A stretch of DNA of 32,000 nucleotides. Source: a virus. Both the position numbers and the translations under genes were made by a program. The stretch spans positions 1 through 32,000 of IMG/VR virus record IMGVR_UViG_3300045988_148646; one strand, written 5' to 3'. The first letter of the stretch is position 1; each line of letters opens with the position of its first letter. Positions 23,483-29,182 of this stretch are shown here, one piece after another. The notes beneath the pieces are model-generated. The model saw nothing but the letters and a program-made list of their open reading frames with translations. It ran no database searches and had not been told where the DNA came from.

Positions 23483-23698
23483 ATCGCTACATTCAAAGTT
23501 TTGACCATAACTACAGTTAACAGATTTAAAGGACGACAAAAATAACAGTAAATACTTTGAATGCAGTGATATGAAAAAGACCCATGTTTCCATAGGTCTT
23601 TTTCAACGGGCACGAAATAATGAAACAATCCAAGAACTACCTTGTTTGTTCAGAAGATGTTTTCCAATCTTCACGACTACAGAATATCACGGTTTTTC

Positions 23699-23717
23699 TT
23701 TGTACACTGTACAAAAT
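23699..23717 (-). promoter_or_regulatory. Second exact copy of the 19-mer TTTGTACACTGTACAAAAT (palindrome 23700-23714) upstream of the packaging operon
   Basis: It is identical to 1156-1174. A -10-like TGATAT (23684-23689, minus strand) sits at the same 10-nt distance as TACTAT does at the lysis copy. Confidence 0.55.
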
Positions 23718-23734
23718 GAAGAAATTCAGATTTT

Positions 23735-23925
23735 ACCCCCCTCTCATGCGCTCATGACCCAGTTTTTTTGAACTCCCCACGCCGTTCCCCAAAACGCAAA
23801 AAACTTTTGAAAGATAGGGGGGTCTATGCTGATCTGATCCCAGCCCTGGGCGCTTTCAGGGTTCAAAATTTGAATTAAGCAGCTACCACCACACCGCACC
23901 GTTAACGGCTTCAATCATATGATTG
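23735..23925. other. GC-rich non-coding island, candidate cos region
   Basis: It is locally far more GC-rich than its flanks. ACCCCCCT (23735-23742) and AGGGGGGT (23816-23823) form an inverted pair, and CCCTG-n8-CAGGG forms a hairpin. It lies just upstream of HNH-terS-terL. Confidence 0.4.
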
Positions 23926-23928
23926 TCA

Positions 23929-24083
23929 TATATTTATTATCGTGTTGAAAGATGTTTCAACATGCATTGTTGAAAGCGTTGTTTCATAACATGACAATAA
24001 CTATATTGCATGTATTTATTATTGTGTTGAAAGATGTTTCAACACGTGTTGTTGTAAACGCTCTTTCATAACATTACCATAGC
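23929..24083. repeat. Two ~73-bp direct repeats (82-bp period), each with a perfect hairpin TGTTGAAA-gatg-TTTCAACA
   Basis: Copy 1 is 23929-24001 and copy 2 is 24011-24083. The hairpins are at 23943-23962 and 24025-24044. Each copy also has a second GTTG(A/T)AA half-site. Confidence 0.8.
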
Positions 24084-24092
24084 CGTATTAAT

Positions 24093-24110
24093 AGAACGCG
24101 CGCACGTTCT
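24093..24110. repeat. GC-rich inverted repeat AGAACG-cgcgca-CGTTCT
   Basis: Seen directly in the sequence, between the long repeats and the iterons. Confidence 0.5.
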
Positions 24111-24166
24111 TATATATGCAATAAACATTGCACCACTCCAATATATATATCAGGTCATGCGCTCAG

Positions 24167-24240
24167 CTGGTGCATTGTCTTCAATGATCTGGTGCATTGC
24201 CTTCAATGATCTGGTGCATTGCCTTCAATGATCTGATTCA
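24167..24240. repeat. Tandem 22-bp iterons, 3 full copies plus a partial one (CTGGTGCATTG[T/C]CTTCAATGAT)
   Basis: Units at 24167-24188, 24189-24210 and 24211-24232, with a partial unit from 24233. They are flanked by (AT)n tracts at 24141-24150 and 24277-24290. Confidence 0.9.
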
Positions 24241-24248
24241 AGCCCACC

Positions 24249-24272
24249 AAAAAAAGGACGTTCACAACGTCC
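24249..24272 (-). terminator. Strong rho-independent terminator for leftward transcription
   Basis: Stem GGACGTT-cac-AACGTCC (24256-24272). On the minus-strand RNA it is followed by U7 (the plus-strand A7 at 24249-24255). Confidence 0.65.
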
Positions 24273-24423
24273 ATAATATATATATTTTAGGTCTGTTAAC
24301 TACATCTTATAAGACCAAACGCAAACACTAGAGAAAGCCTTATAAATAGGCGCTTGCGTGCACGTTTGCAAAACTAAAAGCTTTTTAAAAAAATGAGCGC
24401 AAAAAAATATTATTAATTTTTTA

Positions 24424-24451
24424 TTGACATTACACATATAATGTTTATAAT
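24424..24451 (+). promoter_or_regulatory. Consensus sigma-A promoter: TTGACA-16 nt-TATAAT
   Basis: TTGACA at 24424-24429 and TATAAT at 24446-24451. A second TATAAT lies at 24437-24442, and an A/T-rich UP-like tract lies upstream (24394-24423). Confidence 0.75.
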
Positions 24452-24455
24452 GTAA

Positions 24456-24481
24456 GTGTAAGCTAAATAAAAAGCTTACAC
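24456..24481 (+). promoter_or_regulatory. Inverted repeat GTGTAAGCT-n8-AGCTTACAC at the predicted transcription start (operator and/or 5' stem-loop)
   Basis: It has 9-bp perfect arms and begins 5 nt after the -10 box. Confidence 0.6.
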
Positions 24482-24726
24482 AAAACAAACGGCGCTTACT
24501 CATAAAGCCAAGCCAAGACAACTTTAAATTGAAGATTGGACTTGATAATATGGATAAGTTTATAAGTTTATTAAATAGGTTATTGTTTAGGCTTCACATT
24601 AAAGTAAGCCTAGACATAAAAAAAGGGCGCTTACTCATAGATATAAAAGTCAATGAATAGCGTCATTAAATAAGCAAATAAATTATAGCGTCGTTTGTTT
24701 AAATAGTCAAGTTTGGAGGTGTAAAT

Positions 24727-24918
24727 ATTGTAAGAAAAAAAAGCGGTTTGTTTGATCAATCCAAGTATATACAAGACTACCAAAAGCAAACATATAAACG
24801 TTATATTTTTCAAGTAAGAAAAGATAATACAGATCTTATAAATTGGCTTGAGTCAAAGCCAAACAAACAACGTTATATACTTGATCTAATTGAAACAGAC
24901 ATGAGCAAAAACAAATAA
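24727..24918 (+). CDS. Small ribbon-helix-helix (Arc/CopG-like) DNA-binding protein, apparent ATT start
   Basis: Hand translation gives (I/M)VRKKSGLFDQSKYIQDYQKQTYKRYIFQVRKDNTDLINWLESKPNKQRYILDLIETDMSKNK. GGAGGT (24715-24720) lies 6 nt upstream of ATT 24727. The frame opens at 24703 and has no ATG, GTG or TTG before codon 59. The beta-alpha-alpha pattern is typical of plasmid and phage RHH proteins. Confidence 0.5.
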   Translation: MVRKKSGLFDQSKYIQDYQKQTYKRYIFQVRKDNTDLINWLESKPNKQRYILDLIETDMSKNK

Positions 24919-25052
24919 AAACGTGAACCCCTAGCACGTCGCCAAACTTGAAAGGGATTCACACAACGGCAATTATACACAATATTCAGGAGGTTAAGCC
25001 CGTCTTGTATATATTGCTTTTCTATTCTACCATAGACGGGTTAAAAAAGAAA

Positions 25053-25535
25053 ATGAAAGAACAAAAATACTATTATGGAAATGCTATAAGTGAATACGGT
25101 TTAGAAAATGGACGTGTTGACTATGGAACTCTAGCAAAGGCTTTTGATGCCGTATTAAATAACGATATTATGAACCTAACTTATGATATTGGATGTTGGG
25201 AGCAAGTGAGCGGTATCATTGACAACACGGACGAGATAGAAGAGCTAGAAGAAAAAAGAGACGAGCTAGAAGAAGAAAACGAAAATAACCCATCACAAAT
25301 TATTGAAAATGAAATAAATGAAATAAATGAACAAATAGAAGAACTTGAAAACGAGCAAGACGAGAACAACGAAGTCTTTCAATGGTTTATTGTGGATGAT
25401 TGGGGCGCTAGATTATTACAAGATATCGATGAAGTTGTTTACTACAATGAAAAACTTGATATGTATTTATGGGGCGTTACGCACTACGGTACTTCTTGGG
25501 ACTATGTTCTAACAAGCGTTAAAATTGATTGGTAG
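25053..25535 (+). CDS. Highly acidic protein with a central Glu/Asn-rich helical insert (unknown; DNA-mimic candidate)
   Basis: 160 aa from ATG 25053 (MKEQKYYYG). An alternative in-frame TTG at 25005 lies 11 nt after AGGAGG (24988-24993). The central tract is DEIEELEEKRDELEEENENNPSQIIENEINEINEQIEELENEQDENNE. Confidence 0.65.
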   Translation: MKEQKYYYGNAISEYGLENGRVDYGTLAKAFDAVLNNDIMNLTYDIGCWEQVSGIIDNTDEIEELEEKRDELEEENENNPSQIIENEINEINEQIEELENEQDENNEVFQWFIVDDWGARLLQDIDEVVYYNEKLDMYLWGVTHYGTSWDYVLTSVKIDW

Positions 25536-25548
25536 GTGTAATACACCA

Positions 25549-25698
25549 ATGTTAACACGCAAAGATCTTGACAAGATGAGCGCCTTCCAGGTGCTCATAC
25601 TTGCTTTATTGAAGTTTTACTTTTATATATGTTTTGACTTGCTTATCATGGGCTTAATATTATGTTTTTCTTGTATTATATTGCCACTTATTTATTAA
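25549..25698 (+). CDS. 49-aa hydrophobic peptide (not in the ORF track)
   Basis: Hand translation gives MLTRKDLDKMSAFQVLILALLKFYFYICFDLLIMGLILCFSCIILPLIY. A TAGGTG SD lies 10 nt upstream, and the ORF exactly fills the gap between two genes. Confidence 0.4.
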   Translation: MLTRKDLDKMSAFQVLILALLKFYFYICFDLLIMGLILCFSCIILPLIY

Positions 25699-25716
25699 AT
25701 ATTGGAGGTTTTAAAA

Positions 25717-25947
25717 ATGAATAACAAAGAATATATTGAGTTTACAGAAAAAAAGCTAGATCAACTAAATGTTTCTAGCTGTAAACCTTTTTCAATCAAT
25801 AAACATTTAAACGGCTTATATAATTTATATTATGGGCTTGACGTTGTGGCCTGGATGTTAAAACCGCGTGAACTCTGGCAGCTTGTAAATACTTTATGTA
25901 TTTTGGATATTTTAGGAGGTCTTAAAAATGACAATATGGAAGCGTGA
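25717..25947 (+). CDS. Hypothetical protein
   Basis: 76 aa from ATG 25717, with a GGAGG SD 8 nt upstream. It overlaps the next gene by 20 nt. Confidence 0.65.
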   Translation: MNNKEYIEFTEKKLDQLNVSSCKPFSINKHLNGLYNLYYGLDVVAWMLKPRELWQLVNTLCILDILGGLKNDNMEA

Positions 25948-26521
25948 GCGTGCTCACTTTAATTACTACATCACAAATGAAAGAAAACAACCACACATAT
26001 TTGTTGAAGCGTTAGGAACTCCCAGCGCTTCAACTGAAAAAATTTTAAAAGATCACGGTTTTAAGTTTGATCATAATAAATGCATGTATGTAGCAGCTCA
26101 AACAAATGACTTGAGGTTGTTCGTTGCTCATGATCTGGATAAAGTTTTTAACTATGATATTCAGTTGTTTTATAATACAGAAGCAAAAAAAGAACTTTGC
26201 GCGCCTGATATTCAGGAAATAAAAGATATTTGTTATTATTTTAAAATTTACAAGTGTTATATAGATATATTAAATAAGGATCTTTTTAAGATATGTAAAC
26301 CAGGATCAAAAAGCTTGCTTTTTACTTATAACACTAACTATAAAACTATAGACGTTTTTAATAGAAATAAGTTGCAAGAAAGTTATGTTTACCATGATGG
26401 TAAAATAGAAAAAATGAGCATCGAAAATAATGCACCAAAAAAGAAAAAGAAAGCAGCACCAGCACTTACAGAACAACAAAAGATCAATAAAATGATGGAA
26501 GATTTTGAATTTCCATTTTAG
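25928..26521 (+). CDS. Hypothetical protein with a Lys-rich C-terminal tail
   Basis: 197 aa with an AGGAGGT SD. I recognise no motif. Confidence 0.7.
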   Translation: MTIWKRERAHFNYYITNERKQPHIFVEALGTPSASTEKILKDHGFKFDHNKCMYVAAQTNDLRLFVAHDLDKVFNYDIQLFYNTEAKKELCAPDIQEIKDICYYFKIYKCYIDILNKDLFKICKPGSKSLLFTYNTNYKTIDVFNRNKLQESYVYHDGKIEKMSIENNAPKKKKKAAPALTEQQKINKMMEDFEFPF

Positions 26522-26535
26522 GAGGTAAAAAAAAT

Positions 26536-27111
26536 ATGGGATACATTGGTAATAAAATGAGCGTGCGCGCTTATGAAGCTTATGAAAGTGGTGAAAAGCC
26601 ACTTTCAAAATGGACTAAAACAGCAATCATTAATACAGTATTAGATTATAGAGATGATTTTAAATATGATGAGTTGAAAAAGTATAGTAAGGATGCTTTA
26701 AAAGCTTTCCTAACATATTCAAGCTGGCATCATACGGGATCATACTTTAATGAAACATTTTTCTATAGTTTGGATGAAAGTTTTATAGAAAACGAAAAAA
26801 ATCATATCATAAACGTTTTAGAAGAAAAAACGCAAGAGTTAAAAAAAGAAAAAGAAGAAAAAAGATTAAAAAAATGTGATGAAAAACTAGAAAAATGTTA
26901 TTTTATGTATACAGAATTTGAAGGAACTCGAAAACATCCAAAAGCTGTTGAACGTGAAGCTTATGGAATTATAAAAGGAAATTGGATCTATATGGAATCA
27001 GGAAAAAAATCATTGAATGGTAAATACATTTATAAAGTAAAAAAGTTTGATCGTGCGCCACGCGGAACGGCTCAAATCTTTAAAAATATCGAAAAAAGAA
27101 TTAAAAAATAG
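26536..27111 (+). CDS. Hypothetical protein with the N-terminal motif SVRAYEAYESGEKPLSKWTK
   Basis: 191 aa with an AGGAGGT SD 9 nt upstream. From memory, the N-terminal motif recurs in Firmicute mobile-element proteins of unknown function. This was not verified. Confidence 0.7.
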   Translation: MGYIGNKMSVRAYEAYESGEKPLSKWTKTAIINTVLDYRDDFKYDELKKYSKDALKAFLTYSSWHHTGSYFNETFFYSLDESFIENEKNHIINVLEEKTQELKKEKEEKRLKKCDEKLEKCYFMYTEFEGTRKHPKAVEREAYGIIKGNWIYMESGKKSLNGKYIYKVKKFDRAPRGTAQIFKNIEKRIKK

Positions 27112-27137
27112 CAGCTTATAAAAAGGCTGCTTTTTTT
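27110..27137. terminator. Bidirectional rho-independent terminator between convergent genes
   Basis: Stem AGCAGCTT/AAGGCTGCT (27110-27131) is flanked by an A-run upstream and T7 downstream, so there is a U-tract on both strands. Stop codons of both convergent genes abut it. Confidence 0.8.
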
Positions 27138-27693
27138 ATGCTCTCGTTCTTTTTATTTGCTTCTGGATCAGCTTTTTTTTGACTGGATTCGATGCGAAAA
27201 AGTTCATGAAAAGTTTAGTTTTAAACTCATATTCTTTTTGATCAATTTCCTTTATATCCAAAACCCTTTTAAATATCACTATCGCGATAAAGTTCGCAAA
27301 CAAGTTTGCATCTTTTTCTATTTCCTGGTTCTCATAATTTTCATTTTGAGAATCTTTATAACTTTCAAGTTCCTTTTTCCATATAGATACACTTCTTTCA
27401 TCCATAGAAAATACTTTTTGATTCTTCTTATATACACATGAATATTGATATAAATGTCTTATTTCATGTGCAAGATATATATAAACTAAACTACTATCTA
27501 TGGATGTATTCAGGTTTACACAAATCACATTTTCAATTGGATAGGATGTGCATATACTGCTATCTTTCACTTGAAAAAGTTCTTTATTGACTGGTTTCTT
27601 ATTAAGATCATAAACTTTATCATTTGCTTTAAAGTAAACTTTTGGAATCTTTATATTTAATAATGTGCATAGAAAACTTATATAATCATTCAT
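27136..27693 (-). CDS. Putative zinc metallopeptidase, ImmA/IrrE-like (HExxH ... ExxDANxFA)
   Basis: 185 aa with LAHEIRH and, downstream, QEIEKDANLFANFIA, which resembles the COG2856 signature E..EAN.FA. No adjacent Xre-type HTH gene is present. Confidence 0.5.
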   Translation of the reverse strand: MNDYISFLCTLLNIKIPKVYFKANDKVYDLNKKPVNKELFQVKDSSICTSYPIENVICVNLNTSIDSSLVYIYLAHEIRHLYQYSCVYKKNQKVFSMDERSVSIWKKELESYKDSQNENYENQEIEKDANLFANFIAIVIFKRVLDIKEIDQKEYEFKTKLFMNFFASNPVKKKLIQKQIKRTRA

Positions 27694-28348: not shown

Positions 28349-28377
28349 ACCACACTATCACTCCTATTTATCTGCAA
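28039..28377 (-). CDS. Hypothetical small protein
   Basis: 112 aa with the same KF-rich feature. Confidence 0.6.
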   Translation of the reverse strand: MQINRSDSVVKFLTEAKKFFLIHNTDGFFVQWEDHIVCVYKSGETFIKYEDEQGLRIHKKYICESQFKSLYRKFLDDEIECFNYEDIKNGCNKFYLKSEEEYKRFLRILSDM

Positions 28378-28639
28378 TCGTTTCTATATAACAATTATAA
28401 TAAATGTATCTTTTTCCATCATAATCAAATTTCACATATCCACCATCATTTGTTTCAATGTCAATTCTTCCCTCATAGCTTGCTAAAACTTTTCCATCTG
28501 CTGTATACACATTGATTTTTCTATCCAATCCACCATTCAAATCTGATTTTACATCAGTACCCCAACGATCCACAGAAGCACATCCAAATAAAGAAATGCC
28601 AATCATTCCAACCATTAATAATTTGTATAATTTATTCAT
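28364..28639 (-). CDS. Small lipoprotein (beta-rich), paralog 1
   Basis: 91 aa with a signal peptide and lipobox (ISLFGC). It shares the motif YEGRIDIETNDGGYVKFDYDGKRYIYY with the next lipoprotein. Confidence 0.7.
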   Translation of the reverse strand: MNKLYKLLMVGMIGISLFGCASVDRWGTDVKSDLNGGLDRKINVYTADGKVLASYEGRIDIETNDGGYVKFDYDGKRYIYYNCYIETIADK

Positions 28640-28780: not shown

Positions 28781-29182
28781 TTATTTATTTGTATCTTCTA
28801 CATTAATCAAGCCATGTTCAATCGTTTCTTTAGCAGGAAAGAATGTTATTTTATATCCATACGGATTTTCTTTTACCGAATCGGTCTGAATACTTGTATA
28901 TGTTACATCTTTTGATAAATGTGCATAAAACAATTTATATTTATCTTTTCCAGTTTTAATCGTTACATTCAAATCGCCATCACTATCTGTTTCAATAGAT
29001 ATTTTTCCTTCAACAGAAAACAACGGTTCATTTGTTCTAGTATTTAATGCCACAACCTTTCTCGATATTTTAAAGTTGTTTGCATCCACTCTTAAATTAT
29101 GATTAGCTGTATCTGATTCTTGGCATCCTACCAAACCTAGACACATTGTCATTCCTAAAATTGCACATAATATTTTTTTCAT
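28781..29182 (-). CDS. Small lipoprotein (beta-rich), paralog 2
   Basis: 133 aa with lipobox LGLVGC and the motif VEGKISIETDSDGDLNVTIKTGKDKYKLFY. Confidence 0.7.
   Translation of the reverse strand: MKKILCAILGMTMCLGLVGCQESDTANHNLRVDANNFKISRKVVALNTRTNEPLFSVEGKISIETDSDGDLNVTIKTGKDKYKLFYAHLSKDVTYTSIQTDSVKENPYGYKITFFPAKETIEHGLINVEDTNK

Follow-up and report, generated by a model that had tools for sequence, protein, structure and literature searches.

A plus-strand gene island beside the packaging genes of a temperate gut siphophage as a candidate establishment and anti-defence operon

Introduction

Why would a phage whose genes otherwise occupy one strand keep, beside its packaging genes, a single operon that reads in the opposite direction? 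The question is raised by a 32,000-nucleotide stretch of viral DNA, positions 1 to 32,000 of the IMG/VR virus record IMGVR_UViG_3300045988_148646 (hereafter, the window), which covers a portion of a low-GC (~32%) siphophage. The minus strand carries every credible gene of the window except those of a cluster at 24.5–27.1 kb, and both the GC skew and the AT skew reverse sign only over ~24000–27000. The original prediction, drawn from the letters of the window, described this cluster as a self-contained six-gene island under a consensus host promoter. It offered two explanations: a set of first-expressed counter-defence genes, or a replication, maintenance or exclusion module expressed in the lysogen.

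We analyzed the island, its genes (here P0 to P6) and their relatives in other phages. Our results point, with slightly better than even confidence, to an operon that serves establishment and anti-defence in a temperate, cos-type siphophage infecting gut Bacillota, in which P2 is a candidate anti-restriction protein. We favor this reading because P2 alternates with the anti-restriction protein ArdA at reused junctions, because the same pool of alternatives occurs in an unrelated phage, and because plasmids offer parallels.

Results

Slot A and its alternative occupants

We compared the window phage with its siblings, dozens of which are present in IMG/VR with a large terminase subunit (TerL) 98–100% identical to that of the window phage. 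All open reading frames (ORFs) from the HNH endonuclease gene to the accessory gene M1 were clustered in 30 of these siblings. They share one layout: a regulatory module, a variable position that we call slot A, P3, an optional gene C7, P4, P5, P6 and an optional gene C16. Slot A of the window holds P2 (25053–25535, plus strand), which encodes an acidic protein of 160 aa. Across the siblings the occupants were P2, C10, C13, C23 (with C26 or C31), C33 plus C34, C35, or C31 plus C47, and never two alternatives at once. The breakpoints were sharp by blastn: the left one fell at 25055–25065, and the right one at 25542–25567, the start of P3. P3 is invariably the next gene and forms the 3′ limit of the slot.

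Family C10 (for example L047:6538–7038) is full-length ArdA (Pfam PF07275, E = 1.1e-34; PHROG 2059 ‘anti-restriction protein’, 8e-30). By mimicking DNA, ArdA inhibits type I restriction enzymes. We sampled slot A in 24 loci retrieved with P6, a set that is unbiased with respect to the slot occupant, and found ArdA in nine, C13 in seven, C23 in three, P2 in two and other genes in three. The products of ArdA, P2 and C13 are alike in length (156–166 aa) and isoelectric point (pI 4.05). P2 and ArdA were mutually exclusive and never occurred together. That is, P2 shares slot, length class and pI with the ArdA family, and differs in having no Pfam or PDB match; it gave no ArdA match in Pfam up to an E value of 1, and is not a family member. 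The strongest fact in our analysis is this position: P2 alternates with ArdA at precise, reused junctions in a near-identical genome.

The 5′ junction has a recognizable structure. A junction element at 24988–25052 (plus strand) comprises AGGAGG, the hairpin CCCGTCT...AGACGGG (24999–25040, with a loop of ~28 nt), an A-rich tract and the ATG. It precedes any slot-A gene and forms the 5′ recombination boundary, and its stem carries a compensatory variant, CCCTC/GAGGG, in siblings L060, L064 and L072. The fold of the P1–P2 spacer (24919–25060), taken alone, was not significant (z = −1.7). The junction element could bring the Shine-Dalgarno (SD) sequence near the start codon, or could serve as a processing or recombination site.

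The content of the cassette varies between fixed boundaries among close relatives, and the cassette diverges faster than the backbone: it was 79–86% identical at the nucleotide level, compared with 90–96% for the flanks and 98–100% for the TerL protein. The idea of a self-contained six-gene system was not supported. Slot gene, regulatory module and P4–P6 core each recombine on their own, and P2–P3 and P6 are each found without the others in many other elements. A survey of the gene set did reveal conservation of the P4–P5–P6 core within the lineage; as a whole the set is a mosaic in which slot A is replaced among siblings. A more distant lineage (TerL identity 63%; L101) has the order ArdA–P3–C7–P5–x–P6 with a convergent M1, in the same position and orientation.

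The same frame in an unrelated phage lineage

P2 and P3 also occur in phages of ~50 kb that have no other gene in common with the window (lineage 2). The unit in these phages contains an RHH-like (ribbon-helix-helix) gene, C17, a terminator, a non-coding stretch of ~1.1 kb, a TG-extended 11/12 promoter, a leader of 190 nt, the slot and P3. Small genes and a terminator follow, and the small terminase gene (TerS) begins ~420 nt further on. Lineage 2 slots, sampled by a TerS anchor and so without bias for the occupant, contained P2 in ~34 loci, C23 (with or without C26) in nine, C13 in two, C34-like genes in two and unrecognized genes in two. The junction element (GGAGG, a GC-stem hairpin, an A-rich tract and the ATG) is common to both lineages (L004, L009 and others). 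In one lineage 2 phage, P2 is duplicated in tandem and the two copies are identical (L034:4213–5338, on a contig shared with L239). We also noted a MazF/PemK toxin gene (PF02452, 2e-18) near the RHH–P2 unit in lineage 2, and an M1-like gene 2 kb upstream of P2.

The P2 family as a whole formed 3251 clusters at 90% identity and 725 at 50%. Distant relatives (42–61% identity) were located in prophages of Erysipelotrichaceae, Lachnospiraceae, Oscillospiraceae and other metagenome-assembled genomes, and in the Selenomonas phage-plasmid pSRC3. Several of them lie in short islands opposing the adjacent terminase cluster (Clostridia prophages, pSRC3), often with a P1-like RHH gene nearby. A tblastn search with P2 found nothing in the phage collection and one partial match, Selenomonas pSRC3, among plasmids. 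The 78 neighbors of P2 relatives in bacterial genomes gave almost no Pfam matches and included no known anti-defence gene.

Other uncharacterized genes recur around P2 relatives. A family of 80–92 aa ending in ...GRAYI.KG..R.YLDE.M.V lay no more than two genes away from P2 relatives in four unrelated elements, and was adjacent in three of the four (L080:5205–5447, L082:8499–8753, L093:3077–3355, L094:7938–8204). Two further families recur near P2, one acidic with the motif ‘FWSGA...NDFxWF’ and another ending in ‘...YGLLxEFxENGI’. At L097:7791–9683 a gene with a P2-like C-terminal domain sits ~450 nt upstream of an FtsK/SpoIIIE-family ATPase gene (E = 8e-41), a context that hints at members of the P2 family in conjugative or integrative elements.

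These comparisons bear on one alternative, namely that the locus is a mosaic hotspot without common function, a permissive cos/HNH–M1 site that gathers unrelated ORFans and in which ArdA is a mere passenger. Diversity hotspots of this type have been described for phages (bioRxiv 10.1101/2024.10.15.618418). The components of the island differ in phyletic spread (3251 clusters for P2–P3, 127 for P5 and 331 for P6), in other elements nearly all neighbors of P2 and P6 lack annotation and are unrelated, and contig breaks are scattered through the region, as a hotspot would predict. Three results argue against it: gene order and operon structure persist down to 63% TerL identity, the hairpin element and the start of P3 recur as exact points of replacement, and the same alternatives appear in the regulator–slot–P3 frame of two unrelated lineages, as expected of interchangeable parts. 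We consider a hotspot without common function quite unlikely.

Promoter, terminator and genes of the island

The island extends over 24424–27131 and is the sole plus-strand transcription unit of the window, as had been claimed; we found no other credible plus-strand ORF across the 32 kb, and the skews flip only there. Its main promoter, TTGACA-16-TATAAT at 24424–24451 (plus strand), is a perfect (12/12) match to the consensus and is unique within the window, where 0.08 such matches were expected; a match was obtained in 8 of 100 shuffles. The main promoter was kept in 17/17 RHH-type siblings, those with this regulatory module. By its consensus match, the predicted promoter is of the strong host type that drives autorepressed establishment operons. 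At the other end, a bidirectional intrinsic terminator closes the island: P6 and M1 converge here, with stops at 27111 and 27136, and share the hairpin between these stops (27110–27131), which is preceded by an A-run and followed by a T-run.

All six predicted ORFs proved real, and the count rises to seven with P0, a 36-aa ORF inside the leader. Downstream of P0 on the plus strand are P1 (24727–24918), a basic 63-aa RHH-like putative regulator; P2; P3 (25549–25698), a hydrophobic membrane peptide of 49 aa; P4 (25717–25947, 76 aa), an ORFan; P5 (25928–26521, 197 aa, basic); and P6 (26536–27111, 191 aa, basic). P4 is the first gene of the P4–P5–P6 core, which is specific to the phage lineage of the window. 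GGAGG-type SDs precede P1, P4, P5 and P6, in agreement with the strong SDs reported for the island. The description of its spacers as short or overlapping applies to P4/P5, which overlap by 20 nt, and not to P1–P2, which are separated by 134 nt with conserved hairpins.

Searches of Pfam, PHROGs, NCBIfam and PADLOC assigned none of the proteins P1–P6 to a family and returned nothing but coiled-coil noise. The PADLOC-DB defence models gave no match for P1, P3–P6 or M1 and coiled-coil noise only for P2, and the searches of Pfam, PHROGs and NCBIfam identified no known anti-defence gene in the unit of the window. Profile searches of PDB sequences with alignments of P2, P5, P6 and the RHH proteins, and with single P4 and C13 sequences, returned nothing significant. 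A structure-based search, of the kind that the original prediction had proposed, was made with the confident P6 model and gave no match to a known fold; the P2 model is unreliable. Clear homologues with housekeeping phage roles would have told against the prediction; we found none, and no initiator, partition, helicase or primase signature. At the DNA level, blastn with 23600–27300 found no match in the phage and plasmid collections.

Features of P2

P2 has 41 D/E and 9 K/R residues and a net charge of ~−32. A conserved split core (residues 1–55 and 107–160) flanks an acidic coiled-coil insert. The N-terminal half of the core has the motif YYGNxISxYG...DYxTL...DAVxNN and the C-terminal half the motif EIVYYNEKLDMYxWGVTHxGTSWDYVLT. 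The insert varies in length from absent, in Selenomonas pSRC3, to ~250 residues in members of 439–453 aa, and both halves of the core are kept throughout (examples of insert length are P0384, P0386, P0389, P0407 and L080:5770–6168). Domain fusions were considered and rejected: P2 relatives of 300–450 aa merely have longer inserts, and one SpoIIGA fusion looks like a gene-calling artefact. A search with the family profile gave no relative of P2 in the PDB, and Pfam gave none either. The AlphaFold model of P2 had a mean predicted local distance difference test score (pLDDT) of 56 and is confident only in an acidic helical hairpin at 59–102.

P1 and the exchange of regulators

The RHH assignment of P1 is tentative. 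Its best PDB matches are RHH proteins (2kke at E = 0.3 and another PDB RHH protein at 2.1, with the NikR RHH domain among the matches), and none reached significance. Single relatives matched Pfam RHH_1 (0.01), DUF6290 (0.0012) and the TacA and RepB regulator families. Proteins of the P1 pattern were found close to P2 relatives in at least seven unrelated loci.

The start of P1 is unusual. There is no ATG, GTG or TTG codon suitably spaced from the SD, and we take as the probable start an ATT that lies in frame, 7 nt past GGAGG; the first canonical start, TTG at 24748, lies 21 nt beyond the ATT and has no SD. In this start region (24715–24729), the ATT is replaced by ATA in siblings L032 and L069. 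A weak P1 start would hold repressor output below that of the effectors.

Regulator and effector change together: RHH-type modules carry P1 and ArdA-type modules carry a helix-turn-helix (HTH) gene. In ArdA-type siblings, P0 and P1 are replaced by a divergent CI-like HTH gene (E = 8e-4), an 11/12 promoter and small membrane ORFs. Homology with these siblings stops at ~24407, just upstream of the main promoter, so that promoter and regulator both lie within the replaced segment.

The leader, P0 and a predicted antisense transcript

A structured 5′ leader of ~270 nt (24453–24726, plus strand) encloses P0. The segment 24453–24735 folded with a minimum free energy of −74.7 kcal/mol (z = −6.6), and none of 200 shuffles was as stable; the leader has no match in Rfam. 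An invariant hairpin occupies its 5′ end (24456–24481), and a 14-bp long-range helix pairs 24483–24496 with 24687–24700, enclosing P0. This helix covaries among siblings, in which it exists in four sequence versions. Covariation was judged from duplex energies computed for each sequence: cognate duplexes ranged from −16 to −23.5 kcal/mol, whereas duplexes mixing different helix types were weaker (−5.7 to −10 kcal/mol).

P0 (24550–24660, plus strand; MDKFISLLNRLLFRLHIKVSLDIKKGRLLIDIKVNE) is a basic, amphipathic peptide with a pI of 10.2, a grand average of hydropathy of 0.27 and no transmembrane stretch. An ORF of 36–40 aa was retained in 14/14 leader variants, which are of three sequence types. 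Pairwise codon differences numbered 161 synonymous and 57 non-synonymous in the P0 frame, compared with 21/156 and 19/180 in the other frames; the pairs are not independent, and we take the pattern as an indication, not a probability, that P0 is a coding gene.

An antisense promoter, TTGACT-17-TATAAT (11/12), at 24682–24710 on the minus strand faces the main promoter. Its −10 element and most of its −35 element were invariant in the sibling alignment, even amid differing sequence. An intrinsic terminator on the same strand, GGACGTTGTGAACGTCC followed by T7 (24256–24272), would end the transcript; it was kept in 15/16 siblings, with a compensatory stem variant in L052, and it occupies the same site in L048. 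In ArdA-type siblings, the terminator at this position ends the divergent HTH regulator gene. A protein-coding minus-strand gene within 24272–24680 was considered and rejected, there being no conserved ORF. The simplest reading is a predicted non-coding antisense RNA that runs from ~24675 to ~24255, across P0 and the main promoter.

The layout of the leader is like that of type I toxin-antitoxin systems and convergent-promoter switches. The predicted elements include an antisense RNA with its own promoter and terminator and long-range pairing in the sense strand, as in type I systems; the difference is P0, which is not the hydrophobic membrane toxin that such systems encode. We also examined the direct repeat GGCGCTTACTCATA in the leader and the long-range inverted repeat as operators for P1, and both were rejected, as the type of leader and helix is independent of the type of P1. 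The window and L072 have a common P1 and different helices, and L001 and L003 have a common P1 and different leaders. We concluded that the leader repeats are not determinants of P1 specificity, because helix type does not follow P1 type.

The phage and its gene inventory

The minus-strand backbone of the window encodes the HNH endonuclease (PF01844), the small and large terminase subunits, portal, protease, capsid and tail proteins, and a holin and CHAP endolysin. Compared by TerL, the nearest isolated phages are nd12 and the Butyrivibrio phages Arawn and Idris, at only 46–48% identity. An endolysin identical to that of the window occurs in metagenomic contig L181, which runs straight into host chromosomal genes (radC, mreC, polA and others; the prophage adjoins radC–mreC–polA at L181:1260–11015). 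In contig L183, a tyrosine integrase gene (L183:3136–4233) comes after the identical endolysin gene; in the circular form of the phage the integrase gene would lie just past that of the endolysin. Our sequence comparisons thus indicate that the phage is temperate and integrating, because the endolysin gene is flanked by host genes in the one contig and by an integrase gene in the other.

On the minus strand, the island is followed by the variable accessory genes M1 to M5 and, beyond them, by M6, which is like the DUF1492 late regulators. The M1–M5 stretch differs among siblings (53–100% identity). M4 and M5 (28364–28639 and 28781–29182, minus strand) have lipoprotein signal peptides with a lipobox cysteine.

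The P4–P5–P6 core, M1 and the case for a moron

P5 is confined to the phage lineage of the window: its 127 clusters are mostly at least 75% identical to the window copy, and the most divergent of those listed is 53% identical. Its C-terminus (26440–26521) is a Lys-rich linker followed by a conserved [DE][DE][FM](EF)PF tip, which reads DDFEFPF, EEFPF or EDMPF in relatives. We take this tip to resemble the DDD(I/L)PF tip of the bacterial single-stranded DNA-binding protein (SSB), which serves to dock genome-maintenance partner proteins.

P6 belongs to a widespread phage family of 331 clusters with an invariant SSWHHT motif. Its model (pLDDT 90.6) gave no fold match in the PDB (best E 0.38, TM-score <0.22), and its matches in BFVD were uncharacterized viral relatives only. 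A tblastn search of the phage collection with P6 yielded one partial, unannotated match. Distant P6 homologues lie in long arrays of tiny uncharacterized genes within elements of 60–160 kb, or near the terminase genes of other phages. In one such phage, a Lar restriction-alleviation gene lies within the same tiny-gene array, and HicA, RelB and PemK genes were seen near other distant homologues.

M1 (27136–27693, minus strand) encodes a 185-aa HExxH protein with a weak match to the DUF6782 metallopeptidase family, and its membership of the island unit is uncertain. It is a recurrent neighbor of P6. The two genes are convergent, with 3′ ends that sometimes overlap, and the arrangement recurs where P6 is only 42–49% identical (window 26536–27693; L075–L079, L101, L142–L144, L146, L154, L164). 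P6–M1 as an obligate pair was nevertheless rejected, since most P6 loci of large phages lack M1.

This neighborhood raises the possibility that the island is a lysogenic-conversion moron, expressed from the prophage for the benefit of the lysogen, in superinfection exclusion, abortive infection or defence of the toxin-antitoxin type. P3 would then act at the membrane, and P6 and the metallopeptidase-like M1 would form a two-gene module. Morons are autonomous promoter-gene-terminator units of lambdoid and HK97-like prophages, typically single genes expressed from the prophage. The island is similar in having its own promoter and terminator and in lying beside structural and packaging genes of a temperate phage, and the autonomous promoter-genes-terminator cassette is found in both lineages; it differs in that it comprises seven genes, has a regulator and carries ArdA as cargo in some relatives. 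Lipoprotein signal peptides, such as those of M4 and M5, are typical of superinfection-exclusion morons of prophages. The toxin and M1-like genes near the RHH–P2 unit of lineage 2, the toxin and antitoxin genes near distant P6, and the recurrence of P6 with a convergent M1-like gene in distant elements can also be counted in favor of a moron.

Other evidence speaks against it. ArdA, the commonest occupant in the P6-sampled siblings, serves incoming DNA and not a resident prophage. PADLOC recognized neither P1–P6 nor M1, and the P6 loci of large phages mostly do without an M1-like neighbor. An autorepressed consensus promoter would also suit a burst better than steady expression. Overall, a moron, the chief rival to our reading, seems unlikely to us.

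Upstream repeats and the replication hypothesis

The repeats that had been noted upstream of the island exist. Two tandem 81-nt repeats, each with the 22-nt palindrome GTGTTGAAAGATGTTTCAACAC, lie at 23927–24089 and form a candidate cos/terminase-binding or origin region, and three iteron-like direct repeats of 22 nt (CTGGTGCATTGYCTTCAATGAT) lie at 24167–24240. They fall within an 830-bp non-coding stretch between the island and HNH, upstream of HNH–TerS–TerL, and a GC-rich patch lies beside them at ~23740–23900. The region 23594–24007 was 89–96% identical in all siblings, including those without RHH. We consider 23927–24240 to be the likely cos/terminase-binding region.

These repeats could alternatively be an origin or centromere, with P1 an RHH protein of the CopG/ParG/omega type, P5 and P6 replication proteins and the P5 tail a recruiter of the replisome. 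Such a replication, partition or maintenance module would account for the tandem repeats and iterons directly upstream, the RHH-like P1, the SSB-tip-like end of P5, the basic character of P5 and P6, and the conservation of the P4–P6 core. An iteron-type module has a Rep or ParA/ParB-type protein beside its repeats; no product of the island matches either, nor a helicase, a primase or the SSB fold. The repeats are equally conserved in siblings in which an HTH/ArdA module replaces P1, and P1-like RHH genes travel with P2 into unrelated phages that have none of these repeats. Moreover, the related phage L101 has a canonical SSB gene elsewhere, and an integrating phage needs no plasmid-type maintenance. 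Replication or maintenance, part of the second explanation of the original prediction, found no support and appears highly improbable.

Discussion

We return to the reading of the island as an establishment and anti-defence operon. Upon DNA entry, host RNA polymerase would fire the sigma-A consensus promoter with no phage factor required. The first substantial product would be that of the slot-A gene, which is P2 here, ArdA in many siblings and one of at least five further uncharacterized genes elsewhere. The small membrane peptide P3 would follow and then, in the lineage of the window, the P4–P5–P6 core. The island lies beyond the presumed cos from the terminase genes, and by the last-packaged-first-injected (lambda/HK97) rule would enter first, promoter leading. 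Shut-down would come from its own module: RHH-like P1, the structured leader with P0, and the antisense transcript over the main promoter. The sequences themselves show the anatomy of the island and its conservation, the replacement at slot A, ArdA as the gene found there in siblings, and covariation in the leader. We infer the timing of expression, the autorepression by P1, any anti-restriction activity of P2, any roles of P3–P6 and the identity of the first-entering end.

The counter-defence explanation offered originally has real, if indirect, support in ArdA at the position of P2 in siblings and in the distant lineage, in the host-type promoter, in a regulator of its own and in the location beside the packaging genes. 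Its suggestion of first expression, on the model of T7 0.3, depends on a putative cos position and a presumed direction of packaging.

Several observations weigh on the other side. No protein of the window resembles a known anti-defence protein by sequence (Pfam, PHROGs, NCBIfam, PADLOC, PDB profiles), and P6 has no fold resemblance to one in the PDB or BFVD. The folded core of P2 exists without the acidic insert in distant relatives, and DNA charge mimicry may not apply. P3–P6 are conserved and not variable, as one would expect more of a fixed housekeeping step than of an arsenal in an arms race; they may serve such a step, for example end protection, circularization or host takeover. ArdA was not seen in the slot of lineage 2 among the TerS-anchored loci. 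The lineage 2 unit reads toward the terminase genes, and orientation relative to DNA entry is thus not conserved; only proximity to the packaging site is. Contig ends showed no consistent genome terminus, and the predicted cos and packaging direction rest on the lambda/HK97 paradigm. Lastly, the phage is temperate, and a strong promoter with a terminator would equally mark a moron.

Known systems help to place the island. In p576, a Bacillus plasmid of the pLS20 family (clade II), the RHH repressor Reg acts on strong sigma-A promoters to give transient ard expression (PMC8708921). The establishment operons of p576 are similar to the island in their strong sigma-A promoters, in their variable and mostly uncharacterized genes that include an anti-restriction gene, in the Firmicute host, in the small RHH repressor within the regulon (which in p576 gives a burst, then shut-off, and to which the putative regulator P1 would correspond) and in mosaicism among close relatives. 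There are also differences. The plasmid is conjugative, whereas the DNA of the phage enters double-stranded. P1 has no demonstrated similarity to Reg, and we found no Reg-type dual heptamer operators here. In the island, control would also involve a folded leader that contains a small ORF, and an antisense promoter opposed to the main one. The ard gene of p576 is ardC, in contrast to ardA in the siblings.

Anti-defence genes also cluster in plasmid leading regions, where DNA enters first (PMC11541004). Such leading-region islands have in common with ours known anti-defence genes (ArdA) among uncharacterized ones, variable combinations between fixed boundaries, and SSB-related functions. They use single-strand (Frpo) promoters and show T-strand bias, whereas the island has an ordinary double-strand consensus promoter. 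First entry is, for the phage, a prediction, and phage lineages differ in how the unit is oriented toward the end.

Among phages, the anti-restriction gene 0.3 of T7 (Ocr) is among the first to be expressed, and ArdA acts like Ocr. The likenesses are a host-polymerase promoter near the putative genome end, a small, very acidic protein that would be made early, and the Ocr-like ArdA of the siblings. P2 differs in having no sequence similarity to Ocr or ArdA and a core that is more than an acidic surface, and a temperate cos siphophage injects its whole genome rapidly, in contrast to the transcription-coupled entry of T7. In phages of the Autographiviridae, the early-injected region determines sensitivity to type I restriction-modification, according to one report (PMC12455610).

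In acr-aca operons, a strong promoter is likewise under a repressor (PMC8708921). They share with the island the strong promoter, a repressor in the unit (here putatively P1) and a hot-swappable effector in a constant frame, and guilt by association has led to new effectors there. Aca is an HTH protein usually encoded downstream of the effector, whereas the RHH-like P1 is upstream; the HTH gene of the siblings is divergent and not co-transcribed. The island contains no Acr homologue.

An entry-stage anti-defence cassette with its own repressor is of a kind already known. What would be new is that a temperate cos phage carries one in gut Clostridia-like hosts, together with the plug-in slot shared across lineages, the control by leader and antisense transcript, and the uncharacterized protein families. 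More tentatively, and with less confidence than we have in the operon itself, the island could be a portable establishment cassette by the packaging site with pooled, interchangeable effectors. The frame into which one effector is plugged would comprise the regulator, the consensus promoter, the folded leader with its micro-ORF and antisense RNA, and the junction hairpin. ArdA is the pool's only known member; P2, C13, C23/C26, C33/C34 and C35 would be new anti-restriction or anti-defence families, and P3–P6 new entry-stage factors. The SSB-like tip of P5 could decoy or recruit the host partners of SSB.

In gut metagenomes from humans and animals, both this phage lineage and the P2 family are very abundant, with hundreds of member sequences in single clusters of P5 and of P6; every island protein is uncharacterized. 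The frame of regulator, junction hairpin, slot and P3 is an anchor for guilt by association, as acr-aca has been for anti-CRISPRs, and yields at least five short candidate families. These are relevant to Clostridia, in which restriction barriers hamper genetic tools and phage work. The leader, with its micro-ORF, covarying helix and face-to-face promoters, is a compact regulatory device that deserves study in itself. If our reading of the island is true, the ‘leading region’ principle would reach from conjugative plasmids to temperate cos phages.

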